The notes beneath the pieces were generated by a model that was not told the DNA's origin, ran no database searches, and saw only the letters and a program-made list of their open reading frames with translations. 58,581 nt of DNA from a virus (Duplodnaviria; Caudoviricetes): the IMG/VR virus record IMGVR_UViG_3300025096_001538, positions 1-58,581 of that record, one strand, 5' to 3'. The translations under genes were made by a program, and so were the position numbers. This document shows, in pieces, positions 25,939-58,581 of this stretch (within the stretch, counting starts at the first letter, position 1; each line of letters opens with the position of its first letter).

Positions 25939-26328
25939 TTAAATTAAATCTTCAATCATTTCCTCAATTTTTTTATTGAGAATCTTTATTTCTTTTAATC
26001 CTTTTTTAATCAAGGTAGGTTTACCTTTATTTATACCCGAAAAAACCTTACCCATATTTACTTTCCAACTGTCTCCATAGATTCTTAACATTAAAAAGGA
26101 GCGTTTTTCATCACTCATTTTTTCATCAATAGTAGATTCAACTTTAAAAGGTGGTCTATCTATATCCGTATAAACTTTTCCTAACTCTACATCAGTTCCA
26201 CCCAATCTTTCAAATTCCGTAAGACCATCTGGTTCTCTACCTTTCATCACAGGTTTAGACCACCTTTTTGGTAAATCTCTGAATGAAGTATCATTCCATT
26301 CTTTTAATAATTCTTTTAGTTTAATCAT
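25939..26328 (-). CDS. Leader-bearing hypothetical protein (MIKLKELLKE)
   Basis: Shared leader; internal ESTIDE site. Confidence 0.75.
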   Translation of the reverse strand: MIKLKELLKEWNDTSFRDLPKRWSKPVMKGREPDGLTEFERLGGTDVELGKVYTDIDRPPFKVESTIDEKMSDEKRSFLMLRIYGDSWKVNMGKVFSGINKGKPTLIKKGLKEIKILNKKIEEMIEDLI

Positions 26329-26722
26329 TCTCAATAGTCTCCTTAACCCACTTATTTATTGGACTTGGTAAATCACCTACATCAAAATATCCCCAATCTA
26401 TATGTTCATGATTTATTCTTGGGATAAATTTTGTATTTCCCTTTAATACATATAAATAGAACTCTCCACCATTATCTTTCTTATAGGTACTATTTAAGTC
26501 TGGAATACCATTTAATACTATCTGTGTTTCTTCCGTAAATTCTCTAACTGAACCTGCTAATGGTTCTTCTCCAATTTGTATATGACCTTTAGGAATATGC
26601 CAAGTACCAGATTTCTCTCCTAAACATAATAATACTTTATCATTCCAATAATATAAAACTCCACCAGTATCATCAGAATCGTTCTCGTGTCCTTCAAATA
26701 ATAAATCTTTTAGTTTAAGCAT
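26321..26722 (-). CDS. Nudix hydrolase with leader MLKLKDLLFE
   Basis: Nudix box PKGHIQIGEEPLAGSVREFTEETQI; EHIDWGYF. Confidence 0.88.
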   Translation of the reverse strand: MLKLKDLLFEGHENDSDDTGGVLYYWNDKVLLCLGEKSGTWHIPKGHIQIGEEPLAGSVREFTEETQIVLNGIPDLNSTYKKDNGGEFYLYVLKGNTKFIPRINHEHIDWGYFDVGDLPSPINKWVKETIEND

Positions 26723-27098
26723 TTGAATTACCTGTTTCTTTTCTTACGAAATCTATAACATCACCCTTATCTCCATTACCTTTAAAGGCTATTTTCTTAT
26801 ATGCATCAACCCACATCTTATCACCTTCAATTTGAATATATGCAGTTTTCATACGACCCGTTTTTTCTACTTCTGACCAAGAAATAATTTTAACTCTTGG
26901 ATGTCCACCTATTGGCCATATTCTATTATACTCTTTATCTCTTGCAGTTATGGATTTATAAGTTTCTTTATATTTTGCTTCCCTTAAAGGTGTTTTTGGA
27001 TGTGTTTCCATTACATCTTTAAATGTGGGAAGTGGATCACCAAACTTTCTATCCCACGCGTATTTGCTTTCTTTTAATAATTTTTTTAATTTTACCAT
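26715..27098 (-). CDS. Leader-bearing hypothetical protein (MVKLKKLLKE)
   Basis: Shared leader; SKYAWDRKFGDPLPTFKDVM module also in 38140..38559; motif variant at 27119-27128 upstream. Confidence 0.75.
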   Translation of the reverse strand: MVKLKKLLKESKYAWDRKFGDPLPTFKDVMETHPKTPLREAKYKETYKSITARDKEYNRIWPIGGHPRVKIISWSEVEKTGRMKTAYIQIEGDKMWVDAYKKIAFKGNGDKGDVIDFVRKETGNSNA

Positions 27099-27142
27099 TT
27101 TACTTTCCTTTTTATACTATTAAATATCAAATTACCTATAAT

Positions 27143-30862: not shown

Positions 30863-32020
30863 TTATCCTATGTAAATTGGTAAAGGAACTTTTTGTAATT
30901 TTTCTTGCAGTCGTGTTGATTCTTCACTATCTGCCTCTAACATCATTTTTCGACTTGCCGCCTCAAGGTTTTCTCTTAATTGTGTTACGAGAAACTCTTT
31001 TTCACTTTGTGCTTCAGTTCTTAATGTATCACCATCAAGAGTTGTTTCTGCATTTGGAACTGGTATAGTACCATACTTACTCCTAACCATTCCAAGTAAT
31101 TCTTTAGTTAATGCAAGTCCATATTTTCTAATCCATTGTTTTCCTACATCATTTATAAACTGATATTGCATATTATCATAAGGAACATTTGAGAAATCAG
31201 AAACTGTGTTGGATGTTTCTCCATATGCAGTCTGTGTAGGATCATCCCTATCCGATTTTAAGATATATTCAAACCATAATTTATAATTTGTGGTCGGATT
31301 TGGAAATATTCTTAATTTATTATTTTTCAATTCAAAAGTATGTGCTGATTTTCTAAATTGGTCATTAAATTCAATTGCTTGCATTCTCAAAAGGTCTGCG
31401 TATATCGGCATCATCATAAATTGAACGGCTGGTGTCATATTACCCCAACCAAAACCATCTAACATATTGTAAGAACCAGCTCCTGTTCCTGCATACGGGT
31501 CAAAATATCGTTGAACTGCTGGACTTGCTTCATAAAATACTTTCCTAACCTCTATTGCTGAACCACTATGATTTGCATCTGATATCAATGTATTTAAATT
31601 ATATACTTGTGAACCACTAACAATATCAATAGAACCACTATAATGTTCTATAGTTCCACCCACTCCTGCCTCTGTGCCATATTGTTCCGAAACTCTAATT
31701 GCATCTGCAAAATTAGGTGTAACTCGTTTATGAGTAACATTTGAACCAGTTGCCTGTCCTCGTAAAGATAATAGATTCTCTCTGATATTAAATTGATTTA
31801 CTTGTGCTGAATATTCTGTAATTGCCTCTTCAAAACAGGCATAAAATTGTATGTCTTGTAGTTCAATTGCCATAATTGGATAGCCCAATCTCTGAGCACA
31901 CCATTTTGCAAATTTAGGTCCGTCCCCTTGAAATGACGAATCTGAATCATATAATCCAAATGGTGTCGAACCACTATCTGGATGAATTCCTGAACCACTA
32001 CCTGGCCATATAGCTTCCAT
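30863..32020 (-). CDS. Neck protein (T4 gp13-like)
   Basis: RLGYPIMAIEL, CFEEAITEY, WIRKYGLALTKELLGMVRSKY, TLDGDTL, E..EKE.L..QL, PIYIG. Confidence 0.85.
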   Translation of the reverse strand: MEAIWPGSGSGIHPDSGSTPFGLYDSDSSFQGDGPKFAKWCAQRLGYPIMAIELQDIQFYACFEEAITEYSAQVNQFNIRENLLSLRGQATGSNVTHKRVTPNFADAIRVSEQYGTEAGVGGTIEHYSGSIDIVSGSQVYNLNTLISDANHSGSAIEVRKVFYEASPAVQRYFDPYAGTGAGSYNMLDGFGWGNMTPAVQFMMMPIYADLLRMQAIEFNDQFRKSAHTFELKNNKLRIFPNPTTNYKLWFEYILKSDRDDPTQTAYGETSNTVSDFSNVPYDNMQYQFINDVGKQWIRKYGLALTKELLGMVRSKYGTIPVPNAETTLDGDTLRTEAQSEKEFLVTQLRENLEAASRKMMLEADSEESTRLQEKLQKVPLPIYIG

Positions 32021-32646: not shown

Positions 32647-34293
32647 TTAAACGTAATTAATATCAGCTACGATTACCTTACCATAGAATTCAGGTCTTAC
32701 CATCTTCTTCGCGTATCGTGTCATTACACCCTTACGAGGAGTGAAATTAACAGGATCGTAAACAAGTGGAGTCATGATTAATGGTACATACGGTGCGTAT
32801 ACAGCTCCAGTTTCAAGGAAATTAGATCCTCTGAAACCAAGTAGGATGTCATTTTCTAACATATAAGGGTTTTTATAAACCGTAAATCTGTTATTCAATG
32901 CACCAACTTTCTGTACACCCATTGCATATGATGTATTGCTCGAATCACCATCTGAATCAGAAGCATATCCAGGAATACTTTCGATAACGGTTGCTGTTTC
33001 AGGTGAAACCACCATGAAATTAGCACCACCACGAAGAGTTTTCTGATGGATTGTGTTACTTACTGCTTGCAGTTTGTTTCCAAGAGTCTGGAACCACTCA
33101 CCTTTCGTGTAAGCGTTAGAGTTACCAGAAACTTCAGTAAATACTGAAGAAGCTGAATCATACTCAAATCCAGTCTTAGCTGACCAATACTCAGTCTTAG
33201 CGTCTGCGTTCTGTTTCAACATATCAAGGATTTCCAAATCAATTTCCATTGAAATGTACTCACTCAACATAGAAGTAAGTTCTGCTTCTGCATCAACTGA
33301 ATGATAAGCGTTAAGGTCTTGAGCTAACTCAGGAGTCCAGATAGCTTTAAGTTTACGAGTTTTCGCAACTATACTAACTGAACGAAGAGCTATATCAATC
33401 TCAGGAATATCAACATCGTCTGCTGAATTAGGTGAAGGAGTAGTAAAAGTACTCTGTTCAAAATCACCTCGTGATGTATCACCAGGTTGTTTATGAAATT
33501 TCACCCAAGACATCTTACCATTAGCACCACTTGAACCTGCACCTCTTACATAAAAATATATGTAAGTGGAATCAGTTGTAGTGTATGCTGGATAAGTTGC
33601 TGTAATGTTTGAACCACTAATTGCGAATGCCCTTGCACCTTCCCAATCTACATTAGACCCAGAGTTTAACTGAGTTTTTGCAATTCTCATCTTAAAGATT
33701 CGATTTGCTAATGTACCTGCGACTGCTACTGACGAACTCAATGAAGGTTCGAACTCAACATCTGCCCATGAAGCAGAAGTTCTTGTGATGGATCCAGATG
33801 GGATACCAGGAGATGTTTGGTCATTAATCGAATATCCAAACCTACCTGCACCATATAGACCACCAGCTGCATCTGCGTTAGATGCGGATGTGTTACCGTG
33901 TATATACGATCCCTTAGAGTGTTGAGCAGTTTGAGTTGTACCGTATTTAAAGTCAAGATAGAAAATCAGACCACTTGGTAGGTTCATAGGTTGAACACTA
34001 ACAAAGTCTTGTGCTGCTAACTCACCAAAGATTCTACGAACCAAAGGAAGTGCTACACCTGACCATTCTTCTGAATTCGAAGCTGTACCAGTTTTAGATG
34101 ATTCATCTATTAACTGACGAGCTTGGTTTTCAAGAAGAACTGCCATTCCATGTTGCTTATTTGTATCTTCAAGACCTTCAAGTAATCCAGTGGGCTCCCA
34201 CTTATTGACTAGCTTTTGGGTTTCTGCTAAACGACTGCGTTCGGAATCATAGCTATCCATCAGTTTTTCGATGGACTGTAAATTGTCTGCCAT
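32647..34293 (-). CDS. Major capsid protein (T4 gp23-like)
   Basis: LLENQ, LPLVRR, VSVQPMNLPSGLIFYL, AKTRKLKAIWTPELAQDLNAYH, DAEAEL, EIDLEIL, YAPYVPL, FTPRKGVMTRYA. Confidence 0.97.
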   Translation of the reverse strand: MADNLQSIEKLMDSYDSERSRLAETQKLVNKWEPTGLLEGLEDTNKQHGMAVLLENQARQLIDESSKTGTASNSEEWSGVALPLVRRIFGELAAQDFVSVQPMNLPSGLIFYLDFKYGTTQTAQHSKGSYIHGNTSASNADAAGGLYGAGRFGYSINDQTSPGIPSGSITRTSASWADVEFEPSLSSSVAVAGTLANRIFKMRIAKTQLNSGSNVDWEGARAFAISGSNITATYPAYTTTDSTYIYFYVRGAGSSGANGKMSWVKFHKQPGDTSRGDFEQSTFTTPSPNSADDVDIPEIDIALRSVSIVAKTRKLKAIWTPELAQDLNAYHSVDAEAELTSMLSEYISMEIDLEILDMLKQNADAKTEYWSAKTGFEYDSASSVFTEVSGNSNAYTKGEWFQTLGNKLQAVSNTIHQKTLRGGANFMVVSPETATVIESIPGYASDSDGDSSNTSYAMGVQKVGALNNRFTVYKNPYMLENDILLGFRGSNFLETGAVYAPYVPLIMTPLVYDPVNFTPRKGVMTRYAKKMVRPEFYGKVIVADINYV

Positions 34294-34329: not shown

Positions 34330-35691
34330 TTATAGAATATTAGCTAACTTCTGGAAGCGATTCTTCATATCAAATCCTTCTTCAATCACTTTTGGTGTTG
34401 ATTTAGGTTTGGTAGAAGCAGTTGCTTTAGAGGCGGTGCCTTTACTCTCTTTAATTGGTTTTGGCGTACTTGCGTTTGCCGTTTTGCTACCAAAAGATTC
34501 TGCCAAGGTGGCGAATACCAACTTAACTTCTCTTAGGTTTGCTGCTCTATCGAAGGTTTCTACTACTTTCAACTTTTGTTCATTAGTTAAACCGTGTGCA
34601 CGGAATAATTTGTTAGTGAACAATAGTTTTGCGTTAAGTAGATTTACTTCATTCAACTTAGAACGAAGATACTTCACTACCTTACGATGCTCATCAAGTT
34701 CTGATGTAAGTTTAGATACTTGCTCTTCAGCTTTCTCACCATCTTCATCATCACCCTCTGAAAGTGCTTTCAAGATTTCTTCAAGGTCAATGTCATCTTC
34801 CTCGTTGACTTCTAAGTCACCATTACGGGCTTCAAAATCATCTTGTTCTTTGACTTTGGCGTATTGAACACCATTGACTTCAACTAAATCATCCACTTCC
34901 TCATCTTCTGAGTTTTCGTGACCTGCTGCTGGTGCGTCTGCGGCTGCTGGTTCTTCCGAACCTTGACCGATATCAGACGAATCTGCTGCGTCGTCAGCGA
35001 CTTTATTATCGGCATCACCGATATCAGAAGATACATCATTTTCTGCTAAATCTGCTTGGTCTGCAGTTTCTGCTTCATCAGAAGAAAGACCATCACCGAC
35101 TTCACCTTCCTCATATTCCTCGTTGACATCAGCATCATCTGCTTCATCTTCAAGTTCTTTAAGGATAGATTCTAAGTCGAGTTCATCTTCATCTTCACCT
35201 TCCTGTTCTTCAACAGGAGCTTCAACTTCTTCTTCTTCTTCAGATACTACAGGAGCATATTTAACACCATTAATTTCAATCACACCTTCTTCAGGTATTG
35301 CTGGTTCTTCTGCCCATTCTTCATCTTCATCTGCTACTGCAGGTTCTTCAAAAGGAACTTCTTCGCCAGGAACTTCGTCTTGTGCGACGATAGGTTCTTC
35401 AACGGGAACTTCTTCACCAGGAACTTCATCCTGTGCGACAATAGGTTCTTCACCAACTTCAGGCTCAACTGCTATTTCAGGTTCTTCTTCAGCTTCTGGT
35501 TCTTCCTGTTCTACAGGAACTTCTTCACCAGGAACTTCTTCTTCACCTTCCATTTCAGATTGAATCTTCTGTGAAAGCATGGATTGAATACGGGGAGTGA
35601 AAGCTTCTTCAAGAGCTATTTTAGCGTTTGCAAGTGCCGTTTCTCGGACAGCTTTAGCGTCTGCTATTGCGTCTTTTAAAAGATCATCCAT
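34330..35691 (-). CDS. Prohead scaffold/core protein, very acidic
   Basis: Directly upstream of capsid gene; Glu/Asp-rich with EEVPGEEVP repeats; LNEVNLLNAKLLF and RFQKLANI ends; ATG 35691 has GGAG. Confidence 0.8.
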   Translation of the reverse strand: MDDLLKDAIADAKAVRETALANAKIALEEAFTPRIQSMLSQKIQSEMEGEEEVPGEEVPVEQEEPEAEEEPEIAVEPEVGEEPIVAQDEVPGEEVPVEEPIVAQDEVPGEEVPFEEPAVADEDEEWAEEPAIPEEGVIEINGVKYAPVVSEEEEEVEAPVEEQEGEDEDELDLESILKELEDEADDADVNEEYEEGEVGDGLSSDEAETADQADLAENDVSSDIGDADNKVADDAADSSDIGQGSEEPAAADAPAAGHENSEDEEVDDLVEVNGVQYAKVKEQDDFEARNGDLEVNEEDDIDLEEILKALSEGDDEDGEKAEEQVSKLTSELDEHRKVVKYLRSKLNEVNLLNAKLLFTNKLFRAHGLTNEQKLKVVETFDRAANLREVKLVFATLAESFGSKTANASTPKPIKESKGTASKATASTKPKSTPKVIEEGFDMKNRFQKLANIL

Positions 35692-35813
35692 TATGTTTCT
35701 CCATAAGAGTTTGTTTCCAAGCATAAAATACTTGGATGGAATTAATAAAGTTATTAGGAACTTTAATGCGGTTTACATTATCGGTATGTCATATACGATT
35801 GAATGACATATTC

Positions 35814-35848: not shown

Positions 35849-36112
35849 TTATTTTTTGTAATTTAGGCGTTGCCTTTTAAGTTTTTCTTTAAGTCCTGAT
35901 GTTGGTGGTTCTCCACACCAATCTGGATTATTCTCGTGTTGTCTAATCCAATTACGAACCTTTCCCAACTTTTTTTGTTCAGATCTTTTTGCTGATGGTT
36001 TTTTATAGTATTGTCGTTCTCTCAACTCTACCATTAAACCACTATCTTTAATTTTTCTTTTTAATAACCGTAGAGCGAACTCTATATTATTATTTTTTAC
36101 TTTTATTTCCAA
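35849..36112 (-). CDS. rpsU: Phage-encoded 30S ribosomal protein bS21
   Basis: IKVKNNNIEFALRLLKRKIKDSGLMVELRERQYYKKPSAKR is a bS21 signature; TTG start after GGAGGT. Confidence 0.92.
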   Translation of the reverse strand: MEIKVKNNNIEFALRLLKRKIKDSGLMVELRERQYYKKPSAKRSEQKKLGKVRNWIRQHENNPDWCGEPPTSGLKEKLKRQRLNYKK

Positions 36113-36126: not shown

Positions 36127-36810
36127 TTAATCGGTTTCGTTTTCACCACTCCAATTTGCATCAACATAATTAAAGAATTTTGATTTTTCTTCATCATCAA
36201 GTTGATCTGGTTCAGATACACCCCATTTTTCGAGTGCAGATTTGAAAAAATCTTCATATGAACCTTCTTGAACTGTGTCTGCTTCTAATTCATCACCATC
36301 TCTGTATGATTTACCTTCTGCTGTATCAACTGGAGTTGATTCATTTATTTCATAATATCTACCAAGAATGTGTCCCATATCTTCATATAGTCCACTCATT
36401 CTTTCTTGTAATGATTGAGCTTCTGTAGCAACTTTCTTAAATTGATTAGAAAGACCTGTTAATTCTTTCATATTACGATTTACCGTGATTTTATCAAACC
36501 AATCTTCGGTTTCTTGTAAGGTATGTTGTTTTGCAGTTTCTGCTAAACGAGAAAGTCTTTCTGCTAATTGTCTTAAATTACCTTCACGATAAATTTCATT
36601 TCCAAATGCATTGAAATTACCAACTTCACCCATAAACTCTTTTACATTTACTTTTTGAGTAGATTGTCCATAGACATCTTCTACTATATCAGTAAGTTTT
36701 GTTGATTTTTTTTGGGTTTTAAATCCCATATCAATATTTGAGAATGCATTGCGTGAAACCATTCCACCTAACATTGCATGTTCTTTAATTAAATCTTTTA
36801 GTTTAGCCAT
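36127..36810 (-). CDS. Leader-bearing head-region protein (MAKLKDLIKE)
   Basis: Shared leader; helical DWFDKITVNRNMKEL...LYEDMGHILGRYYEI core; C-terminal YEDFFKSALEKWGV...KSKFFNYVDANW module; motif at 36830-36839 upstream. Confidence 0.75.
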   Translation of the reverse strand: MAKLKDLIKEHAMLGGMVSRNAFSNIDMGFKTQKKSTKLTDIVEDVYGQSTQKVNVKEFMGEVGNFNAFGNEIYREGNLRQLAERLSRLAETAKQHTLQETEDWFDKITVNRNMKELTGLSNQFKKVATEAQSLQERMSGLYEDMGHILGRYYEINESTPVDTAEGKSYRDGDELEADTVQEGSYEDFFKSALEKWGVSEPDQLDDEEKSKFFNYVDANWSGENETD

Positions 36811-36838
36811 TATATGTCTCCTAATCAAATATAAATAT

Positions 36839-46546: not shown

Positions 46547-48121
46547 TTATTTTATTAACCAAGTTAGATCTTCTTTTGTATTTCCAGTTTCCATTACCCA
46601 TTCATCATTTTGATTGTCGGTCTGTGTATAAACTGGTTCATAATCTAACATTTTACTTAGGACTGTTTTTTGTAGGGCAATTCCTTCTGCGTTCAACCTT
46701 AATGCAGTATCTCTTACCCACAATCCAATTGCTAAACTCATTGCAAGGTCATCATTATATCCTTCCATTGCTTCAGCTCTGTTGTTGTGCCATATAAACA
46801 CAAATAATTCATCAATTAATCTGTCCGAATGAACGATAACAGATTTTTCTCTGAAATATTCTTCTAATTTCGCGATTACTAATGGTCTTGTTTTCATTGT
46901 CATACTAAATCCAGGTACCATTTGTCTTTCGGAATTCCTATATCGGTTTGTTACTTGTCTTGCAACATCAACATACCTTAAATCTTTACTTGTATAAAAT
47001 AGATTATCATATTCTCTATCAATTACTTGTTGAATAGCTGCCCAACCAATACTTGAGTTCTCAATAACTAATAACGCGTTATTAAACTCCATAGCAGTAT
47101 TCATACATAAATTACCAAAATCTTTGGTAGAAATCTTTCCCTTGTATTCTGCAACTTGTTCCATGCTCTCTATTTCAATTACATGAAATGCAGAAAAATC
47201 AGCTCCATCACCACGGGCGACATCAGCAGCCACTACATAATTTTTATTATAATTTGGTTGTCTCCAAATCCACAAGTTACTATCAATTCCTCGTTTCTCA
47301 ACAGGTTCTTCAATTTGTTTTTCTCTGTATTCCTCTAAAATAACACCATCAATAACACCTTGTCCAGAAGTGATAAAGTCACAATCACATTCTTGTGCTG
47401 CTCCACTTGGTCCCAATAACTTATCTTGCTCATCTCTCCAATCTTGTTCTCTATCAGGATGAACCGTCCAATGTAATTTGATTGTATTCCAATCATTCTC
47501 ACCTTCTTCTGCACCTACCCAAGTTTTGTGAAACCAATTACCAACACCATTTGGTGTAGATAGGGCAATACATTGTCCACCAGTTGATAGAGTACTTTGT
47601 GCAGCAGTCCATATTGTATCAATCTTGTCAATAAATGCTGCCTCATCAATAACGAGTAAAGATAGTGCCTCTGAACGACCTGCGTCCTCAGTACTTGATA
47701 TTGCTTTTACTTGTGAACCATTTGAATATCGTAGTGAGAGTTTGTTATCCTCAACACAATTTGACCTTACCCAACTCGGTAGGTTTGCGTGCATAACTCG
47801 GATTTTCGTAACCAAGTTTTTAGCGGTATCTTGTTTAGTTGCAATAACCAATATATTCTTGTCTGATTGAAATGTCATCATCCATAAAGAGTATCCAGCG
47901 GTTAATGTTGATATTCCCAACTGGCGTGCCTTCAGAATAACATTATAATTATTATTTTTAAAATCATTTAGAGAAGCTTCTTGAAACGGATATAAAGCAA
48001 AAGGAACTTTACCTCTTAGTGGATGTTGAATTACAGCATACTTTTTTAGGAAGTACACAGGGTCTTGTGCACATTTTAAATATTCCTTTTTGATGACTGA
48101 CTTTATATTCTTATCACTCAT
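46547..48121 (-). CDS. Terminase large subunit (T4 gp17-like)
   Basis: LYPFQ, LKARQLGIST (Walker A region), LLVIDEAAFI (Walker B), STPNG, AADVARGDGADFS, NDDLAM. Confidence 0.96.
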   Translation of the reverse strand: MSDKNIKSVIKKEYLKCAQDPVYFLKKYAVIQHPLRGKVPFALYPFQEASLNDFKNNNYNVILKARQLGISTLTAGYSLWMMTFQSDKNILVIATKQDTAKNLVTKIRVMHANLPSWVRSNCVEDNKLSLRYSNGSQVKAISSTEDAGRSEALSLLVIDEAAFIDKIDTIWTAAQSTLSTGGQCIALSTPNGVGNWFHKTWVGAEEGENDWNTIKLHWTVHPDREQDWRDEQDKLLGPSGAAQECDCDFITSGQGVIDGVILEEYREKQIEEPVEKRGIDSNLWIWRQPNYNKNYVVAADVARGDGADFSAFHVIEIESMEQVAEYKGKISTKDFGNLCMNTAMEFNNALLVIENSSIGWAAIQQVIDREYDNLFYTSKDLRYVDVARQVTNRYRNSERQMVPGFSMTMKTRPLVIAKLEEYFREKSVIVHSDRLIDELFVFIWHNNRAEAMEGYNDDLAMSLAIGLWVRDTALRLNAEGIALQKTVLSKMLDYEPVYTQTDNQNDEWVMETGNTKEDLTWLIK

Positions 48122-48486
48122 TATAATTTTCCAAATACAAATCCTATTACTAACCACAAATATTGGTTTTCATACCATTTAGGTTCAACTAATTTAACCA
48201 TCTTTTCGTTCATTTTCTCACGAGCATGTAATAAAACAATCTGTTTGTCTTTTGCGTTTAATAGTAAAGAATCAAGTTCTGTCTGATTCTCCAACTTTTT
48301 CATTAAACCTTCATAATCACTAATTACTAATTTCTGTGATGATATCAATGAATCGGCCTTTTCAATTTTACCTTCCCATTGAGCATCTCGTTGTTTAATC
48401 ATTTCCAACGCTTCTTCTTGTGTAAAAGTTTGTTGCCCAAATAGTGGGATGGATAATAATAATATCCATAGATATTTCATTTTCAT
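48121..48486 (-). CDS. Exported coiled-coil protein with C-terminal TM (possible lysis accessory)
   Basis: Signal-like MKYLWILLLSIPLFG, coiled coil, KWYENQYLWLVIGFVFG. Confidence 0.55.
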   Translation of the reverse strand: MKMKYLWILLLSIPLFGQQTFTQEEALEMIKQRDAQWEGKIEKADSLISSQKLVISDYEGLMKKLENQTELDSLLLNAKDKQIVLLHAREKMNEKMVKLVEPKWYENQYLWLVIGFVFGKL

Positions 48487-50078: not shown

Positions 50079-50803
50079 TATGCTCTCCAACTTATCATAA
50101 GGTTTTGTCCGTCAAGTTTTTCCGTTACATTATCTTCTCGGTGTAACTCTCCACCTAAACCTCTTTCTATGATATTCTTCAAATCTTTAAATGTTAAATC
50201 TTTATCATCAAAAGGATGTGCCATATGTCCGTATGCTCCACCCTCTGTAATTAATTCTCTAAGTTCATCACTCCACCAATCTTTTGTTAATGGATTATAT
50301 TTTTCAACATGAAGTCTTGGTCGTTTCTTATCACCATCAAAATTCTCATCAGAATCGGCCGATTTTGTTGATGCATCAGGACCAACTCCGGCTGCCATTG
50401 GTGGACCGGCTATTAATTGATCTTTATCAACTCCCATCCATTGTATTACCTTCCAACCTAAACTATCCATTACATTTCGTAAAGTCTTTTTATACTTTTT
50501 TACCTCTCCGTGAGATATTGGATTTGTTGCCCTGTAAGACATAGTATAATCTTCTTCTGGATCCATTGCTCCTTTACTTAATATATACTGGACTACTTTC
50601 CATCCTAATTCGTTCTGCATTGATTCAACCCATTTTTCCGTTTCTTGTTTATATTGGGTTAAAGTTCTGAAAAATGTTGGAGGTCCGTCATCAACTGGTG
50701 CATTTACACCCATAGTTCCTTCTTTTAAAATCTCTGTAATATCATTTTCAACTAAAAAATCTCCTATGACATCACCACTAAATTCTTTTAAATAATCTCT
50801 CAT
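50078..50803 (-). CDS. Modular protein ending in the N-terminal fragment of a ligase-like nucleotidyltransferase
   Basis: LITE-GGAYGHMAHPFD...TEKLDGQNLMISWRA-stop; KxDG is ligase motif I and lies 13 residues from the C-terminus. Confidence 0.65.
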   Translation of the reverse strand: MRDYLKEFSGDVIGDFLVENDITEILKEGTMGVNAPVDDGPPTFFRTLTQYKQETEKWVESMQNELGWKVVQYILSKGAMDPEEDYTMSYRATNPISHGEVKKYKKTLRNVMDSLGWKVIQWMGVDKDQLIAGPPMAAGVGPDASTKSADSDENFDGDKKRPRLHVEKYNPLTKDWWSDELRELITEGGAYGHMAHPFDDKDLTFKDLKNIIERGLGGELHREDNVTEKLDGQNLMISWRA

Positions 50804-51360
50804 CTTGTTTCAACTTTATTTTTATCCAACCACCATTGAACTTTATTAACAACTACATCAAAATTTCTGTGGCTTCTACTCAAATCAAATGAACTCCAAT
50901 AATCTTTTACCAAATAATATGCTGGTTCTACATCTTTTGAACCAGGTCTGATATTTCCTACAACTTGATTTGATTGCATATCTGAATCTACATGATATTT
51001 CAAATAATCATAATCAAATGGATTTGAATAATAATCATTTTCATAAATCCATTTTAAAATCGGGTCAAACTTTACGCCCTTTAAGAACCAATCAGCAGGT
51101 CCTCTAAATTTACTATGTCCCCAACCTTGTACATAAGCGTAATACTGATACATTATGTTAGTAGGATATCTTTTATTACCTGGCCTTCCCTTGTAATCTA
51201 ATTTATTAAACCCCTCTTTCATAACTTCCTTACAAAGTTTTTTTGTACCAGATGGTATCTTACTTTTTTTACCAGTTTCTTTTTGAGCCTGTTTAATAAT
51301 TTTCTCAAAATCTGATGTAGTTACTATTCGTTCTACAATAAGTTCTTTTAATTTAATCAT
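50800..51360 (-). CDS. Leader-bearing hypothetical protein (MIKLKELIVE)
   Basis: Shared leader; ATGA coupling. Confidence 0.75.
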   Translation of the reverse strand: MIKLKELIVERIVTTSDFEKIIKQAQKETGKKSKIPSGTKKLCKEVMKEGFNKLDYKGRPGNKRYPTNIMYQYYAYVQGWGHSKFRGPADWFLKGVKFDPILKWIYENDYYSNPFDYDYLKYHVDSDMQSNQVVGNIRPGSKDVEPAYYLVKDYWSSFDLSRSHRNFDVVVNKVQWWLDKNKVETR

Positions 51361-51617
51361 CTTTTTTCCAAGTCAAATGCTCTGGTCAACATAGCGCCGG
51401 CATGTTGAAGTTCAAGACGAGCTTTTTCATACTTCTTAAAGTATCTCATTAAAGTTCTATTCTTACTCTTTTTAATATCATCCTCAAGTTCATACCAAAG
51501 TCGTCCATCTCGTGATTTATGAATATAATCACTACCAACTTTTAGTAATTTTTGGTGATTCCATGAAATATCTGAAAGGTCTACCTTTTCTTCTAATATT
51601 TTTTTAAGTTTAATCAT
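51357..51617 (-). CDS. Leader-bearing hypothetical protein (MIKLKKILEE)
   Basis: Shared leader; TAATG coupling. Confidence 0.75.
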   Translation of the reverse strand: MIKLKKILEEKVDLSDISWNHQKLLKVGSDYIHKSRDGRLWYELEDDIKKSKNRTLMRYFKKYEKARLELQHAGAMLTRAFDLEKR

Positions 51618-51889
51618 TATCTTTTGTAATAATCTTCAAAACGTTTGTAAGCTGCCCGTTCATCAAATTTACCCTGACGTTTTACACCAATTTTTATTGC
51701 ATCTATAAATGCATGCTTCAAACCAGGAGAATTAAAATCTGACATCATTTTATTGATGTTATCGATTGACCTTCCAATTCCTGCAATGGCGTTTGTTAAT
51801 GGCTTCTTAAGCCGTTTAGCCTGTTTTTCATCTGCGGCGGCCACGCTATCTTCATCAGCCTCACTCATCATATCTTTTAATTTAATCAC
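51617..51889 (-). CDS. Leader-bearing hypothetical protein (MIKLKDMMSE)
   Basis: Shared leader; GTG start with GGAG; motif at 51919-51928 upstream. Confidence 0.75.
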   Translation of the reverse strand: MIKLKDMMSEADEDSVAAADEKQAKRLKKPLTNAIAGIGRSIDNINKMMSDFNSPGLKHAFIDAIKIGVKRQGKFDERAAYKRFEDYYKR

Positions 51890-51926
51890 TTATTATCTCC
51901 GATATATACTGATACACTTATAAATA

Positions 51927-52496
51927 TTAAACTTCTAAACTATTTAGTTTTTCTTCAACCTCTGTTTTCATCTTATTCAATTCTTCGAGAGCTTCTTTAG
52001 ACATAGTTTCAACTTGCTCTTTATTTTGACTCCACTTTTCTTTTTGTAATTCAACTTCTTTAATTCCAACAGAATCAAAAACTTCTACTGGCTTTGAAGC
52101 TTCTTCTTTCCAGTCCTCTATACTCCCAATTTGGTCTTTTATATAGGAAAGTTGATTGTTTAACACCTTTTTTTCTTCCCATTCCTCATATTTACCCTCA
52201 ATTCGAAGCTTATTTTCAAATTTTACTTGGCAATCAAAACAATGATTGTGTAATCTATACATTTTGTCATCTAATCGTCTTTTCATCACCTTTTTACACT
52301 CAGGACAAAACCAAGGAGTCTTTGCTTCCTTTAAAGCGTCCATTCGGTCATTTTTTCGTTCTCTTTCTGCCTTTATTTCTTCCTGTCGTTTCTTTTTTTC
52401 TTCTAAATCTTCCATATGTACAAAAATTCGTTTATCTGGTGTTTTACCACTTAAAATATCTTGTCTTGCCTTTACATGCCTTTGATGTTCATTCAT
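51927..52496 (-). CDS. Zinc-binding coiled-coil protein
   Basis: PWFCPECKKVM...HNHCFDC. Confidence 0.7.
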   Translation of the reverse strand: MNEHQRHVKARQDILSGKTPDKRIFVHMEDLEEKKKRQEEIKAERERKNDRMDALKEAKTPWFCPECKKVMKRRLDDKMYRLHNHCFDCQVKFENKLRIEGKYEEWEEKKVLNNQLSYIKDQIGSIEDWKEEASKPVEVFDSVGIKEVELQKEKWSQNKEQVETMSKEALEELNKMKTEVEEKLNSLEV

Positions 52497-52763: not shown

Positions 52764-55621
52764 TAGAATGTCATAAGTCCTGTTATTTGATTAATCGGTG
52801 CAAATGCTCCTGTAAATTTAAATGTTTTTCCATTATACTTGAAAACTATTCCTTCACTTGGAACTATTGCATCTAATCCACCTATCCTATTCAATTTATC
52901 CAACTGTAATTTTAATGTATTGAGTTTTTTCAAATCTCCACCACTTCTAACATTCTTAATTGCTGCATCTAATTGTTTTTTTACTCGTTGAACCGTAGAA
53001 TCTGGACTTGCTGCTAACCAACCACTTACATTTTTCATTATTTCTGAACCAACCTCAAAAAATAACTCCTCAAATGGTTTCATATTCTTTTTAACCATTT
53101 TTGCGTGGTCTGCTTTATCGGTAGATAATACCCAATCTAAAAATTTTGGATGGTCTTTTAAATCTTTTCTAATCATTGGTATTTTATATGACTTATCAAA
53201 GAATGCCCATCTCTTTGTAAGTTTTTCTAATATTTTATTGGGTATCTTTGGATAATCAGTTTGACTGGCCCCATTCATAATCCATTCTTGCCAAAACATT
53301 TGATGATACATCGAAAGAGTATCATTATCACCTAAACTATATTCCTTTTGTAATTTATTTAATTTACTTATAAAATACTTTTTCTTCTTATCAAAATCTT
53401 GATGTTTAGGTACGGTTAAAAAGTTTGGTTTTCCAATCTTATAATGTTTCTGTATATTTTTATTTACTTGTTTAATCATACCAGCTAACATTCTTGCACT
53501 ATCTTTGACCTCACCAATTGCATTTCCATCATCATCATATTCTAATGCCCCATGAAATACAATTTCGGCTTTGTCATAATTTATAACATTGGATGACTTA
53601 GGCCACATAACTTCAAGATTCATCCAAGCTTTACCATTCTTAAATATCTTATTTCGTTGTTTATCCGAAAGTGAACCAATGGCCCTTTCCAAATCTTTCA
53701 TAGCAAAACTAAATGCGTCCGCGATATCACCCCTACCTTTAAACTTAGAAATTATTCCACTTGTACTTAGTGCAGTTTTACCACCATCCTTTAAGTGTCC
53801 TTTGTTTCTGGCAGCTACTAATTTTCCACCAGTTGCTTCTGTAATCTTTTGTTCCTTCCAATTAAATAATTTCTTAAATTTATTATGCATCATTAAAAAG
53901 ACACCTTCATCCCAATAACCAAATGCATCTTTAAATAATTTTTTCCTTTCTTCATCCGAAAATTTCTGTGAACCAAGTAATTCTCTCATTACCGTTCCAC
54001 TAACTTCCTTTCCACCAACCTTAACTGATTGATGTGGGGCAGTCATAAAATATCCGTGTTCCTCATATCCCTTTAGATTATTCTTATTCTTTTTATAATC
54101 TTGGAAATATGATAAACCACCATCTTTCCTTTTACCACCTGCCAATCTTCCGGCATCCTTTTGTCCGAATATATATATCACGGCAGTGGTCTCGGAATCG
54201 TATTTTTTTAGCACATTATTTGCCACCAATGGAACTTTTTCCTTGATAATACGATTTTTAGGTACACCCATCTTGGTCATATGACGAAGCTTCTCTCTGT
54301 AATTCATAGGATGTTTAGGTGGTTTTTTGATATCTGATGTTGTGATGTAAGCGTCATCTACCCTTGACTTTAACCACTTGTAAGTCTTTAAGTGATGTGG
54401 GCCAAATGGTTGATATCTACCACCATAGATACCTATTACTTTTTTAATTTTTTTATTATCTTCTGATAACCACTCGTCAAAAACTTCCATAGCCTTTCTC
54501 ATACCACTTGTCTGTGATTTATGATGTTTCGCTCTATTATACATCGTTTCCACAATTTCTTTTTGTTCTGATTTAGACCTATTCGTAATTGACTTTATAG
54601 TTTTATTTGCAGTTCTAACTGAATCATAACCAATTCCCTTTATATGATCCAATTTAGTTCGTGGCCAATAATATTGTTCTCCTGCCTCGTTAAGTTGTTC
54701 TAATTCATGTTCTTTTAGAACTGGATTTACAAGTTCCCCTACAAGTGCACTATATTTAGGTTTTTTTGTAGTTGGAACGAATTGTTTATATTTTTTATCT
54801 GGAGTATGTTCATATTCTTTTACAATAAAACTAAGTTTAGACTTATAATCATTTGGAAGTGTATTTTCTATACCAAGAAACTTTACTGCTCCTGGAACAA
54901 GATAAAGTATCATTTCCCTTTTATTTAAGTTCATAATTAATTGACTTGAAGTCCAAAGTTTATTTTGTGCTCTAACTAAATCATACTTGGGTCCCTTATC
55001 TTGTATATGATTATAAAACGCAGGAAATAATTCTTTATAATGTGGTGTCTGGTGTACAACATTTAATGCATTCATCAATCTTAACTCTGAAGATAATTTA
55101 TCATTTCCTCTTTGATAACCTTGTTCAGTATGTTCTATTCCGTGATTAGTTCTTACTATTGGTTCTTTACTTAAATCTTTTATCTTTACTACAGGCTTAA
55201 CTCTACTTGTATTTTCTATCACTACGAGTTTTTTACCATCACCTACCAATGTATGACCTTTAATCCCACCATGATATGATACCAATGATTTTACAACATC
55301 GTGTAAAGTTGTCTTACGAAGTGCCTCTCTAATTCTTGCACCATCTTTGGACATCGCTTTCTTTTTCTTTGACTTATCAAAATCTTTCTCATCTCGTTTT
55401 ACGAATAATGCAGAGTTTACCAAACCGATTCCATGAGAATTCATTCCCTCTGACCAATCTGTATCTTGGTCTATTACATAGCATAACTCAACACCATAAC
55501 CAGTTAGTTCCCTAACTACTTTAAGATTCGGATTATAATTTCTATCTCGGTTTTTACCGATAACCATATCATTACCGAACATTGATGCCACTGCTATACA
55601 TTCTTCTATGTGTTTCTTCAT
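52763..55621 (-). CDS. Four-module polyprotein: Ntn-hydrolase-like, small helical domain, HIGH-type nucleotidyltransferase, C-terminal fragment of a ligase-like domain
   Basis: IEE-CIAV...GKNRDR...WSEGMNSHGIGLVNS...RTNH; QLNE-...TMYNRAKHH; WLSE-...IYGGRYQPFGPHH...SGTVMR; KITE-ATGGKLVAARNK...MNLEV...EGIVF...FKFTG. Confidence 0.7.
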   Translation of the reverse strand: MKKHIEECIAVASMFGNDMVIGKNRDRNYNPNLKVVRELTGYGVELCYVIDQDTDWSEGMNSHGIGLVNSALFVKRDEKDFDKSKKKKAMSKDGARIREALRKTTLHDVVKSLVSYHGGIKGHTLVGDGKKLVVIENTSRVKPVVKIKDLSKEPIVRTNHGIEHTEQGYQRGNDKLSSELRLMNALNVVHQTPHYKELFPAFYNHIQDKGPKYDLVRAQNKLWTSSQLIMNLNKREMILYLVPGAVKFLGIENTLPNDYKSKLSFIVKEYEHTPDKKYKQFVPTTKKPKYSALVGELVNPVLKEHELEQLNEAGEQYYWPRTKLDHIKGIGYDSVRTANKTIKSITNRSKSEQKEIVETMYNRAKHHKSQTSGMRKAMEVFDEWLSEDNKKIKKVIGIYGGRYQPFGPHHLKTYKWLKSRVDDAYITTSDIKKPPKHPMNYREKLRHMTKMGVPKNRIIKEKVPLVANNVLKKYDSETTAVIYIFGQKDAGRLAGGKRKDGGLSYFQDYKKNKNNLKGYEEHGYFMTAPHQSVKVGGKEVSGTVMRELLGSQKFSDEERKKLFKDAFGYWDEGVFLMMHNKFKKLFNWKEQKITEATGGKLVAARNKGHLKDGGKTALSTSGIISKFKGRGDIADAFSFAMKDLERAIGSLSDKQRNKIFKNGKAWMNLEVMWPKSSNVINYDKAEIVFHGALEYDDDGNAIGEVKDSARMLAGMIKQVNKNIQKHYKIGKPNFLTVPKHQDFDKKKKYFISKLNKLQKEYSLGDNDTLSMYHQMFWQEWIMNGASQTDYPKIPNKILEKLTKRWAFFDKSYKIPMIRKDLKDHPKFLDWVLSTDKADHAKMVKKNMKPFEELFFEVGSEIMKNVSGWLAASPDSTVQRVKKQLDAAIKNVRSGGDLKKLNTLKLQLDKLNRIGGLDAIVPSEGIVFKYNGKTFKFTGAFAPINQITGLMTF

Positions 55622-57333
55622 CTCCGTCCACCCTTATCAAAATCTTTTGAGAATTTTTTGAGTTTATCAAATGCTCTAAACTTTTTCATCTTTTCTTGTT
55701 TATGCCATTTCATCTTATCAAATACTTTCATTCTCATATGTTGTTTTACTATCCAATAAATATCAAGAACATTGCCTCCCATAGATTTTATCCACTTGGC
55801 ATATTTCTTAACGAGTTTTGCTGATACATGCTCGTGTCCGTAATGTGTCCAAAACCCTTTCTTTGGATGTAGTTTTGCAGTTGAGTCTTTACCTATATCG
55901 TGAAATAGAGCGGCAAGTGCAAAATCTATATCACCAGTTTTAAGTGCTCTGTTAGTAACGGCAATCGTGTGTTTTAACACATTACCTTCTGGATGAGCAT
56001 CTCTCCGCTGGTCGTAATTTTTGAGATTGTAAACTCTTTTCTTTAAATCACTTGGTAGTGCATTATAAATGTCTTTGAATTTCTTCGGTTTTTTTCTCAT
56101 TGCTATTTCGTTCATTTTAAGTTTCTTTCTCAACTTTTCAATTTCCCTTTGAACTTTCTTTTGGGCTGAACTTCCTGGCATCATTTTCATTGCCATTGTA
56201 TAAAGTTTATACAACTTTGCCTTATCACTATTTTCATTTAAGAATTTATCTTTTTCCTTGTTTTGTATTGCTTTACCAATATCCTTCCCCTTTAAATCAC
56301 CCGAAACATCACTACCTCTTACCGATAGTTTAAATCTAACTAACTTTTTAAAATCTTTTCCAATGTACTTACCCCATTTAAGAATTTGACCTTTACTCAA
56401 TTTAGTCTTTTCTTGAAACTTCTTAATCATAAAGATATTCTCAGGTTTAAAATTCTGTAAAGAATTCAAAAACTGAATATCGACAATTTCTTGATTAGGA
56501 TAGGCTAAACCATTCAATTTCCGTAATGAATTTACATCATTTTTTCGTAAAATCCAAGATAAAAATAAAATATAATCGTTTTCATTTATGTACGGAACTT
56601 TAACTTGAAATCCAGGTAATATCTGTTTTGTAAATCCTAATGAATCAGCAAGTTGTAAATACTTTTTAGTTGATTTTGCCTTTTTGATTGACTTGACAAA
56701 TTCATCTCGTATCCTTTCTGTACTTACACCTTTAAGACTTGGATTTTGTCTTAAAGCCTTTTCTGTTTCTTTCCCTAACTTACCACCAAGTGCCCCCTGA
56801 AATCTTAATGCTCTCATCTTTCTTAACGGATCTTCATCAAATCTTTCGACAGCATTTCCAACCGTTCTGATTTTTTTCCTTTTCAAATCTGCTATTCCAC
56901 CAACCAAGTCTACAATCTCTCCCCTATCCATATCGTAGAACAACGCATTTATGGTTAAATCTCTCCGTTTAACATCACCTTCGATGTCGGTATAATCAAC
57001 TGAACTTGGGCGTCTCCCTTTACCAATATCCTTTCTGAATGTTGCTATTTCGTGTCCAGCCACTATCACGACACCGAATTGTTTTCCAACCTCTACGGTT
57101 TTCAATCCACCTTTTTTTGCTATTGCCAATACCTCGTCAGGTTTAGCGTCGGTGGCCAAATCAAAATCTTTTGGGTTCTTTCCTAATATTGCATCCCTAA
57201 CTGCTCCACCAACAACAAAAAGTTTTTTCTTGTTTTTCTTAAAAAGTTTGTGTATATTCTTTATGTCAGAAGGGATGTTGAGCCTAAATTTAGAATACTC
57301 ATTCAACGGAATTAAATTAGAAAGATAAATCAT
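55618..57333 (-). CDS. CCA-adding enzyme / poly(A) polymerase family protein with C-terminal HD domain
   Basis: VVGGAVRD, KDFDLAT, EIATFR, DVKRRDLTINAL, RFDEDPLRKMRALRF; HPEGNVLKHT, ALFHDIGK, GHE, QHM. ATG 57333 is in a TAATG overlap. Confidence 0.9.
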   Translation of the reverse strand: MIYLSNLIPLNEYSKFRLNIPSDIKNIHKLFKKNKKKLFVVGGAVRDAILGKNPKDFDLATDAKPDEVLAIAKKGGLKTVEVGKQFGVVIVAGHEIATFRKDIGKGRRPSSVDYTDIEGDVKRRDLTINALFYDMDRGEIVDLVGGIADLKRKKIRTVGNAVERFDEDPLRKMRALRFQGALGGKLGKETEKALRQNPSLKGVSTERIRDEFVKSIKKAKSTKKYLQLADSLGFTKQILPGFQVKVPYINENDYILFLSWILRKNDVNSLRKLNGLAYPNQEIVDIQFLNSLQNFKPENIFMIKKFQEKTKLSKGQILKWGKYIGKDFKKLVRFKLSVRGSDVSGDLKGKDIGKAIQNKEKDKFLNENSDKAKLYKLYTMAMKMMPGSSAQKKVQREIEKLRKKLKMNEIAMRKKPKKFKDIYNALPSDLKKRVYNLKNYDQRRDAHPEGNVLKHTIAVTNRALKTGDIDFALAALFHDIGKDSTAKLHPKKGFWTHYGHEHVSAKLVKKYAKWIKSMGGNVLDIYWIVKQHMRMKVFDKMKWHKQEKMKKFRAFDKLKKFSKDFDKGGRR

Positions 57334-57729
57334 TACCACTTCCAACCTAACATTGTCTTAGTTCTAAGATAATGTTTTGCTGCCTCTTCCATTCCATACT
57401 CTTTATCTATCTTTGGATGCCAAGTATCTTTAATCTTTATCTATCTTTGGATGCCAAGTATCTTTAAAGAACTTCATTGGCATTCCCTTGAAAGCATATT
57501 TACTTGAACCAGCCACCATTGTTTGCCAATCTTTTACTATCTTCCTTTTATCTACTATCCAAACATGCTTATATCTTCTACCATTAGAAATCCATTTATT
57601 CTGTACTGAACCAAATACAACTTTTGCCTTTTTATCTTTTTGGTTAGTCATGTAATATTTCCAAGCCCACGAAACACATTCACCACAAGCGATAACTTTT
57701 TCTGATATTAGTTGTCTTAGTTTAATCAT
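57333..57729 (-). pseudogene. Leader-bearing (MIKLRQLISE) Cys-His-Asp transglutaminase/papain-like protein, truncated by a 34-bp duplication
   Basis: GECVSWA...KHVWIVD...KDW. Removing one repeat copy restores ...KIDKEYGMEEAAKHYLRTKTMLGWKW-stop, which couples to the CCA gene start. Confidence 0.6.
57400..57467. repeat. Perfect 34-bp tandem duplication causing a premature stop
   Basis: TCTTTATCTATCTTTGGATGCCAAGTATCTTTAA at 57400-57433 and 57434-57467. Confidence 0.97.
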
Positions 57730-58581
57730 CAAAAACTCCTTTTCTATCTGTATACCACTTACGATATTTTGCTGGAGTTCCAATAGTTATATTTTTTGTA
57801 AGTCTTTCAAGTTGGTCTTTTTGTTTCTTATCCCACTCCCAACCCTTAGCTACTCTACTCATTACAAATACTTCTTTAATCTTTGCACCATATATCAAAA
57901 TTTCATTCCACCAAACAGAACCCTTCGTGGATGGTGTTGCAAGGTTTTTCTTTACTAACTTTTTATGCTTTTTCAATAAATTATTTGTCAAGTCAATGTA
58001 GTCAGCAATTACTTCCTGTGCCTTTTTATTTAATATTTCTTTAACTGCCGCTTCATATTCTTTGATATTATCTGCAGTAGTTCCAAATTTTTCCATCATT
58101 TTATCTTTTGTTTCCCATTCAAAATCTCTCCACGATTCACGGCCAGGAATCTTTTTTCTTTTTGCCGCCGAAGCTACCAAATATGGATCATCAAAAACTA
58201 TTGTTGAATTAATCCACCTACGGCCTGTTTTATCTGGTTCACTTTGCATATCAATATATTTTCTTGCTAATAAAGTTCCTTCTATCCAAAATATAACTCC
58301 GCCTTCAGTCTGAATACCCTTTCCTTTAGCTAATTGAGAATCTTTACCGGCACGAGTAAATGTTGAGATTGATTTTTTACTACCAAGTAATTTTTTTACA
58401 TTTTCTAAATGATGAAGTGTTGTTACATGAAAAGAAGTTATTGGTATTTTACCAATTATTCTCTCCATTGACTTTGGATAGATGGGAATGGTTTTTTGAT
58501 TAAGAACCCAATCTAATGTTTTTCTCGTATGGGCAGGATACCACTTATCATCAATCCAATCTTCTAATAATAAATCTTTTA
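57722..58581 (-). CDS. Leader-bearing hypothetical protein, start just outside the window
   Basis: The frame is open upstream of the track start 58468 to the window edge and reads xKDLLLE-DWIDDKWYP..., matching the leader. Confidence 0.75.
   Translation of the reverse strand, partial: KDLLLEDWIDDKWYPAHTRKTLDWVLNQKTIPIYPKSMERIIGKIPITSFHVTTLHHLENVKKLLGSKKSISTFTRAGKDSQLAKGKGIQTEGGVIFWIEGTLLARKYIDMQSEPDKTGRRWINSTIVFDDPYLVASAAKRKKIPGRESWRDFEWETKDKMMEKFGTTADNIKEYEAAVKEILNKKAQEVIADYIDLTNNLLKKHKKLVKKNLATPSTKGSVWWNEILIYGAKIKEVFVMSRVAKGWEWDKKQKDQLERLTKNITIGTPAKYRKWYTDRKGVFDD

Follow-up and report, generated by a model that had tools for sequence, protein, structure and literature searches.

In the 58,581-nucleotide stretch of the IMG/VR record IMGVR_UViG_3300025096_001538 analyzed here (the window), ten genes start with a common leader of ten residues, M-x-K-L-K-x-[LIM]-[LIM]-x-E, in which residue 2 is I, A, L, V, or K. 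This leader is probably a propeptide resembling the capsid-targeting sequence (CTS) of phage T4, which would target its cargo to the prohead and be removed by a gp21-like protease. Head-gene homologies (terminase, portal, protease, capsid, and scaffold) point to the window therefore being the late, structural region of a distant phage of the T4 superfamily. All long open reading frames (ORFs), and all genes named below, are on the minus strand, and the GC content is 30-39%.

We searched all six frames of the window with the pattern x-x-[KR]-L-[KRS]-x-[LIM]-[LIM]-x-E. This gave 11 matches, all on the coding (minus) strand and none elsewhere, and ten of them lay exactly on an ATG or GTG codon. 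These ten are MIKLRQLISE (99 residues, 57430-57729); a three-gene run headed by MIKLKDMMSE (GTG start, 90 residues, 51617-51889) and continued by MIKLKKILEE (86 residues, 51357-51617) and MIKLKELIVE (186 residues, 50800-51360); MIKLKDLLVE, between the portal and protease genes (114 residues, 42707-43051); MKKLKEILHE (139 residues, 38140-38559); MAKLKDLIKE, on an acidic, conserved head-module protein of 227 residues (family 1, 36127-36810); MVKLKKLLKE (26715-27098); MLKLKDLLFE, fused to a NUDIX hydrolase domain (133 residues, 26321-26722; Pfam, 9.9e-11); and MIKLKELLKE (129 residues, isoelectric point 9.2, 25939-26328). A preliminary description of this DNA had placed every one of these starts correctly. 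It had also put a Glu at residue 10, which is true of all ten complete copies, and all ten end in [LIM][LIM]xE.

A position-specific scoring matrix (PSSM), trained on 63 leaders of other contigs with the window copies left out, gave the same result. The ten leaders scored 13.7-23.7 bits (23.7 at 26328, 23.6 at 43051, and 15.0 at 57729), and the best start of a reversed-sequence control scored -1.3. At the DNA level, the degenerate pattern DTGNNNAARYTNAARNNNNTNNTNNNNGAR had nine matches against 0.04 expected, a number reached in 0 of 100 shuffles, and a chance origin of the leaders was rejected on these counts. The tagged proteins are mostly basic, with an isoelectric point of 9.2-10.0 in ten of the 12 in the window.

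The eleventh match (39020) lies two residues inside an ORF that starts at 39026 with MKASRLREIIKE. This gene carries a second leader type, described below, and is an additional tagged gene absent from the preliminary list. The ORF at 57722-58581, truncated by the window edge, reads KDLLLEDW, and all eight of its homologues in other contigs start with MIKLK..[LI][LIM]xE. Two other starts had been proposed as variants. The one at 41553 (GTG) has the terminal motif (..KKLLVE, with Glu at residue 9) and lacks the rest of the leader; it belongs to a 485-residue protein (40096-41553) that is a candidate core protein or protease substrate. In this protein a DWWxDL segment follows ..ELKE, and in relatives the same segment directly follows a canonical leader. 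The other, MIYLSNLIPLNE, is the N-terminus of a tRNA nucleotidyltransferase (55618-57333; phrog_2244, 9.9e-65); it fell below the PSSM listing threshold and is a doubtful variant at best. The claim that similarity mostly stops after residue 10 holds generally, except that single-linkage clustering groups 38559, 27098, and 26328 together, and that 38559 and 27098 also have a second short module, (R/K)(K/E)FG(D/E)xLPT, in common.

The leader is conserved at the protein level. The 256 unique leaders of the window and related contigs comprise 235 distinct 30-nucleotide strings, and a DNA repeat as their source was rejected for that reason. In the window, the codons vary (Leu CTA, TTA, or CTT; Ile ATT or ATA; Glu GAA or GAG), and the regions upstream, including the ribosome-binding sites, differ between copies. 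Across the 256 leaders, every Leu codon (six) and every Glu codon (two) appears in near gene-body proportions. Codon use at K3, L4, and E10 is likewise near gene-body values, with a mild preference for A-ending codons (AAA at K5, 0.93 vs 0.75 in gene bodies; ATA at I7, 0.83 vs 0.41). We consider it highly improbable that a nucleic acid element is being conserved, whether a translation-initiation enhancer made of A-rich codons after the start or the boundary of a gene-shuffling recombination cassette. Such an element would fit the mild excess of A-ending codons and the frequent tandem arrangement of tagged genes, but not the variety of the DNA or the dissimilar upstream regions; moreover, an RNA element needs neither Glu at position 10 nor hydrophobic residues at 4, 7, and 8, and orthologous leaders change in length and type while the Glu before the mature start is invariant. 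Conservation at the DNA level was an objection that the preliminary description had raised to its own proposal, and the varied strings and ordinary codons answer it.

The window encodes a predicted peptidase for the leader. The gene at 41556-42176 specifies a gp21-family prohead serine protease (phrog_207, 9.8e-51) with 31% identity to T4 gp21 over 163 residues (E 2.8e-22) and a match to the solved T4 protease (PDB 5jbl, 1.8e-14). It has in common with T4 gp21 the GELDHP and GISSRG blocks, which we take to hold the catalytic His and Ser. The gp23-like major capsid protein (32647-34293, from a homologue search) indicates where this protease might cut. The propeptide of T4 gp23 is reported to be 65 residues long, and in an alignment of the two capsid proteins its FLTE65/A falls in the same columns as LIDE64/S of the window protein, which gives a predicted propeptide of 64 residues ending in QLIDE64/SS (34102-34293). 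The pattern [LIV][LIV]xE is present at the predicted maturation site in every one of 80 related capsid genes. The leaders also end in hydrophobic-hydrophobic-x-Glu, and therefore in the predicted cut motif of the best-conserved substrate of the protease.

Two further lines of evidence bear on leader removal. In the 30 orthologues of family 1 (36810), the leader is 8-14 residues long (e.g. MSKKIKLKDLLKE and MKKKVLKE), Glu10 and Lys5 are invariant, and the Glu stands just before the conserved mature start. In addition, the mature cargo avoids the motif: 243 mature parts contained 37 copies of [LI][LIVM]xE, vs 77.5 expected. With one protein per cluster, the observed/expected ratio (O/E) was 0.64 in cargo vs 1.32 ± 0.20 for sets of 95 neighboring genes, and resampling of neighboring genes reached a value as low as that of cargo in 2 of 5000 cases. 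The control motifs, ending in xD, xQ, or xK or reversed, showed no depletion in cargo. The invariant Glu at mature starts and the avoidance of the motif suggest that the leader is removed by the prohead protease. Complex modeling of the protease, from an alignment of 24 rows, with the first 45 residues of family 1, from one of 30 rows, yielded no answer (score 0.00) and counts neither way.

The leader is widespread in related phages. An IMG/VR search with the capsid protein gave 599 matched stretches, 595 of them confirmed relatives, and 80 with a capsid identity of 65-85% were kept; a collection-wide scan for the leader pattern gave at least 118 stretches. The pool of 214 loci plus the window (2.3 Mb) contained 379 pattern matches, of which 287 coincided with a start codon and opened an ORF of 40 residues or more, corresponding to the 256 unique proteins. 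After removal of the leader, these proteins formed 99 BLAST clusters, including 71 singletons. A conservative count, restricted to capsid-anchored contigs and the window, is 88 proteins in 24 clusters, and adding the 74 of the 118 pattern-derived loci that have another window gene gives 208 proteins in 74 clusters. In an alignment of 95 cluster representatives, only M1, L4, and E10 were invariant and mean column identity was 5%; with 99 clusters, this led us to reject a paralogous gene family. Within the leader, the search pattern itself sets L4 (256/256), position 8, and E10, and position 7 is L or I in 248 of 256. Of the 41 loci that extend 8 kb or more upstream of the capsid gene, 33 have the leader on 1-7 ORFs. 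Thirteen genes are tagged in the nearest relative (82 kb), all at 46.6-78.9 kb; in its segment beyond the right end of the window (G002:C1:1-46538, L217-L219), none of 43 same-strand ORFs has a leader, and some N-termini there resemble, by eye and without a family search, sugar-nucleotide, glycosyltransferase, and radical-SAM-type enzymes.

Most of the cargo has no family in Pfam or PHROGs. In the window, the only cargo with a known family is the NUDIX protein at 26722, whose leader is present in all 120 of its nearest database homologues and at residue 1 in 113 of them. For most window cargo and neighboring genes Pfam and PHROGs gave no family, and Protein Atlas returned for 27098 and 36810 just unnamed viral clusters or structural matches with a template modeling (TM) score below 0.5. 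Among 71 representatives from window-related contigs, Pfam recognized one each of NUDIX, Zeta_toxin/AAA_33, HD, Pribosyltran, ADPrib_exo_Tox (2.8e-6), DUF6782, and MPTase-PolyVal, as well as several DUFs. The DUF6782 and MPTase-PolyVal proteins are metallopeptidase-like, the latter match being weak (5e-4). The wider set of 95 representatives added one each of Mom, LysM, Hydrolase_2, Phage_lysozyme, OmpA, and SprT-like in Pfam, and the PHROGs labels endolysin, cytidyltransferase, and polynucleotide kinase; these additions come from contigs of unestablished kinship to the window or from another choice of representative. As most cargo is without a known family, "effectors", the term used in the preliminary description, is a presumptive name.

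Some domains occur in both tagged and untagged proteins. The HD part (residues 417-569) of the tRNA nucleotidyltransferase at 55618-57333 occurs elsewhere as a separate small protein with a canonical leader (46% identity), as do the last 100 residues of a 435-residue protein at 36839-38146 (74% identity). The presence of untagged window domains in tagged proteins elsewhere suggests domain shuffling into or out of the tagged set. A Cys-rich CxCGGxCC segment, which may be a metal-binding or disulfide motif, was seen right after the leader or the second module in several tagged proteins of related loci (e.g. L062:6338-6685, L076:5358-5708, and L015:6290-6646). The largest cargo "cluster" is really a mosaic of short modules such as this one.

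Tagged genes are concentrated near the head genes. In the capsid-anchored loci, 137 of the 144 tagged ORFs are within the head-morphogenesis module, 1-9 kb upstream from the capsid gene. In the window, an N-proximal hydrophobic-hydrophobic-x-E was found in 17 of 41 genes at 25939-58581 vs 2 of 18 in the tail half, and none of the recognized tail, neck, or shell structural proteins has a canonical leader. This placement would also be expected if the leader were a protease-removed propeptide of prohead-core components (like T4 gp67, gp68, and gp22) that are degraded or expelled at maturation. Such an explanation suits family 1 (36810), which is acidic, conserved in 30 relatives, and always adjoins the scaffold and capsid genes, and it suits the long, acidic, low-complexity protein at 41553. 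For these two alone, the proteins may indeed be expelled core proteins rather than injected cargo. As an account of the whole set it is unlikely: scaffold should be conserved, but the cargo comprises 24-99 unrelated clusters and differs between close relatives; enzyme domains occur among it; and the cleavage motif is scarce in the mature parts, contrary to what is expected of a protein destined for degradation.

We also weighed a protein signal unrelated to the capsid, such as a tag for a chaperone or for a membrane or replication compartment, a mark for timed degradation, or an inhibitory peptide of the zymogen type. Cargo of the nucleotide-metabolism type (NUDIX, HD, phosphoribosyltransferase, and P-loop kinase-like) need not consist of virion proteins, which is in keeping with such a role. 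However, it would leave four features unexplained: the ending of the leader in the motif of the capsid maturation site, the avoidance of that motif by the cargo, the clustering of tagged genes between the portal and capsid genes, and the likeness of the layout to the T4 CTS. We therefore regard this alternative as rather improbable. The leader, being charged and just ten residues long, is not a secretion or membrane signal; secretion was rejected because there is no hydrophobic stretch.

The leader of the second type reads MK(K/A)S(Q/R)L(R/K)x(I/L)(I/V)(K/R)E. It was found in the window (38559-39026), in Flavobacterium phage immuto (L001:6287-7045), and at L046:7102 and L147:1022, and its carriers include a 369-kb contig; its presence in the window, immuto, and this contig therefore gives it a wider reach across the group than the canonical leader. 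In the window it precedes (MKASRLREIIKE..NIINE) a phrog_1987 domain of unknown function in a 155-residue protein. We compared the best 120 database homologues of this domain and classified the 105 with a G[TAS]RW start. The second leader type was present in 76, a canonical leader, in some cases with an extra module, in 23, and neither in six. A Glu stood directly before the fold in 105 of 105 regardless of leader type, and [LIVM][LIVMT]xE in 96. The AlphaFold (AF2) model of 39026, with a predicted local distance difference test score (pLDDT) of 87.3, shows residues 1-21 as a low-confidence helix, with the confident fold beginning at residue 22. For this fold, Foldseek against the PDB gave nothing at E <= 0.001, and the best Z in a wide VIA-align search was 4.2.

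The second module, (W)DRKFGEPLPTL..VM, follows the leader at 26715-27098 and 38140-38559 (there ..KREFGDKLPTL) and in 30 of the 256 tagged proteins of the pool. The comparison of 27098 with its orthologue in the nearest relative shows an insert of 30 residues (..WDRKFGDPLPTF..PLRE) with a Glu at both ends, so that ..LLKE/S...PLRE/AKYKETY in the window corresponds to ..LLTE/AKYKETY in the relative, the mature part starting with AKYKETY in both. From this comparison, the module may be an extra targeting segment that can be excised.

Several results weigh against the interpretation of the leader as a cleaved capsid-targeting propeptide. The shuffle test with one protein per cluster (22 observed vs 29.1 expected, z -1.5) is weak alone; hydrophobic-hydrophobic-Glu without the spacer is also depleted in cargo (O/E 0.53-0.55), so part of the avoidance could reflect composition or secondary structure; and the control genes were unexpectedly enriched in the cleavage motif (O/E 1.3). 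As to distribution, 8 of 41 capsid-anchored loci have no leader by the pattern, a complete 216-kb relative has just two tagged genes, and some tags may be chance matches, since 44 of the 118 pattern-derived contigs have no other window gene. The NUDIX, HD, phosphoribosyltransferase, and kinase-like proteins are enzymes that need no link to the virion. The spacing is that of the T4 CTS, and MAKLKDLIKE is identical to the start of T4 gp24 at five of ten residues, but ten residues are too few to prove homology or to tell it from convergence. All window genes are on one strand, leaving timing to be deduced solely from a putative promoter-like motif, and the exact form of this motif, ATATTTATA, is upstream of just two of the five tagged-gene clusters.

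The word ATATTTATA (in the coding-strand reading) has 15 sites on the coding strand and one on the opposite strand, with 3.3 expected in total. The sites span 16607-51927 (e.g. 18478, 21451, 21464, 32056, 32542, 35821, 36830, 44619, and 51919), and 13 of the 15 lie in gaps, 27-100 nucleotides upstream of genes. These genes include tube, sheath, adaptor, scaffold, 44584, 36810, and 51889. Among tagged genes, a site at 36830-36838 precedes 36810 and one at 51919-51927 precedes the three-gene run of 51889; the run of 27098 has an upstream copy with one mismatch. From its positions, ATATTTATA is a candidate late promoter of the clade. The T4 late-promoter word TATAAATA was also considered on the coding strand and is not the relevant motif.

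Taken with these reservations, the preferred interpretation suggests the following course of events. During head assembly, the leader would direct each tagged protein to the scaffolding core inside the prohead, and the gp21-like protease (41556-42176) would then cut after Glu10, at the same kind of hydrophobic-hydrophobic-x-Glu site as it is predicted to use in the capsid protein, following Glu64. Once mature, the cargo would stay in the head with the DNA and probably enter the host with it. The tag is modular, being placed on many unrelated cargo proteins, with at least two interchangeable leader types and an optional second module bounded by Glu.

The remaining head genes of the window agree with a T4-like assembly. 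They are the large terminase gene (TerL, 46547-48157, by profile family search), a gp20-like portal gene (44651-46534; phrog_213, 3.6e-67), and a head-tail adaptor gene (30863-32020, by family search). Directly upstream of the capsid gene, 34330-35724 encodes an acidic protein (isoelectric point 4.1) that has no family match in Pfam or PHROGs and is the gp22-like candidate scaffold by position and composition. The capsid protein is closer to those of an uncultured phage (56.5% identity), Microcystis phage Mel-JY01 (54.6%), Flavobacterium phage immuto (51.5%), and Rhodothermus phage RM378 (36.7%) than to T-even phages; identity to gp23 of Aeromonas phage 65 is 26.4%. The label "Far-T4", or immuto-like, is our assignment from these capsid identities. 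In the head modules of immuto and Mel-JY01, the nearest isolates, we found no canonical leader, only looser N-termini ending in hydrophobic-hydrophobic-x-E. The clade carrying the leader is one of marine, uncultured, abundant T4-like phages.

Two neighboring genes are worth recording. A ribosomal protein S21 homologue (35849-36112; phrog_21469, 2.2e-12) lies between the tagged gene of family 1 and the scaffold gene, and an annotated RpsU occupies the equivalent place in Mel-JY01. The gene at 43718-44584, adjoining the portal gene, encodes a basic protein of 288 residues that is conserved at this position in immuto and Mel-JY01. No other window protein is as dense in the cleavage motif (seven sites, 2.4 per 100 residues), and for this reason the protein is a candidate degradable prohead-core component.

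A broader reading goes beyond targeting and cleavage. It is conceivable, though somewhat short of an even chance, that the tag is an address label for the packaged and injected proteins of the clade, with dozens to about 100 cargo families delivered with the DNA. On the same tentative footing, the delivered set might include NUDIX, HD, kinase-like (zeta-toxin/AAA_33), ADP-ribosyltransferase-like, and zincin-peptidase-like enzymes, together with folds that have no solved relative. With similar reserve, the system could be modular to the point that, with two exchangeable leader types and an excisable (R/K)KFGEPLPTL module, 30 added nucleotides might retarget any gene. Proteins injected with phage DNA act first in infection, e.g. 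as anti-restriction factors or host-takeover enzymes, and are hard to recognize from sequence. Should the tag act as the T4 CTS does, a single short motif would pick out the candidate packaged proteome for a large group of uncultured marine phages, and dozens of unknown families would become open to targeted tests as early-acting counter-defense factors. It would also mean that the way in which T4 targets and processes such proteins is conserved throughout the T4 superfamily and that three cargo proteins can become more than ten in one genome, and it would provide a second natural tag for putting foreign proteins into phage heads. The leader is mainly of value as a way, from sequence, into the packaged proteome of this abundant, uncultured clade.

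We found no description of this leader in the searchable literature, with subscription-only papers and supplements lying outside that scope. The Far-T4 genomics paper has nothing on internal proteins, a protease, or a leader, a paper comparing cyanophages contains none of the terms looked for, and the one metagenome paper located there that names the capsid-targeting sequence cites it solely for T4 internal protein I (IPI). The closest known system is that of T4, where IPII and IPIII start with MKTYQEFIAE in the T4 record. In a review of T4 head assembly, which summarizes IPIII mutagenesis, the first ten residues of T4 IPIII are reported to suffice for incorporation, targeting depending mainly on residues 4 and 7 and processing on residues 8 and 10 (PMC9026906). 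The leader described here is also ten residues long, with hydrophobic residues at 4, 7, and 8, a usually acidic or polar residue at 6, and Glu at 10; its hydrophobic residues 4 and 7 match the targeting residues of T4 IPIII by sequence alone. The internal proteins of T-even phages are described as a diverse set with a conserved CTS as their sole common feature. As with IPI, IPII, and IPIII, the tag is present on otherwise unrelated, small, mostly basic proteins, the cargo varies between relatives, and a gp21-family protease is in the same head module as the portal, scaffold, and gp23-type capsid genes. The N-terminus of the T4 vertex protein gp24, MAKINELLRE, resembles that of family 1, MAKLKDLIKE, with M1, A2, K3, L7, and E10 identical and positions 4, 6, 8, and 9 of similar type, although family 1 is not a paralogue of the capsid protein. 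T4 Alt offers a parallel for the cargo: it is described as an ADP-ribosyltransferase packaged via a cleaved propeptide, and a tagged ADP-ribosyltransferase-like protein, the ADPrib_exo_Tox match above, occurs in a related contig.

There are also differences from T4. The consensus is MIKLKDLLxE vs MKTYQEFIAE, and tagged genes lie mostly inside the head module, whereas those of T4 are at separate loci. The leader comes in two interchangeable types, an optional second module that may be excisable can follow it, and some of the cargo consists of recognizable enzymes. The window and the nearest relative have 10-13 tagged genes per genome fragment vs three internal proteins in T4, which bears out the preliminary claim of wider deployment. 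Capsid targeting, proposed there as a candidate function, is the best-supported interpretation, given a gp21-family protease, a leader ending in its predicted motif, and unrelated cargo that avoids this motif. The accompanying view that the system is a different one does not hold, as length and hydrophobic/Glu layout are those of the IPII/IPIII CTS and the gp24 N-terminus.

Other head-delivery systems are less similar. In the giant phages phiKZ, 201phi2-1, and SPN3US, a gp21-related protease is reported to cut after the Glu of a short motif, and many head-internal proteins are processed. The protease and the Glu-ending motif are points in common, but the propeptides described for those phages are mostly longer than 100 residues with no common short tag, and P3 is small (A/S), not L/I as here. 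Polyvalent proteins, the Dar proteins of P1, and the ejection proteins of P22 resemble the tagged proteins in delivery with the genome, which for the latter is presumed; the weak MPTase-PolyVal match of one tagged protein is a further point in common. Packaging in those systems depends on large multidomain fusions or on ordered protein-protein incorporation and involves no common cleavable tag of ten residues. The same length and the same hydrophobic and Glu layout as in the T4 CTS therefore suggest the T4 mechanism in a distant relative, and the leader system is probably the known T4 CTS principle, strongly expanded, in a distant branch of the T4 superfamily.

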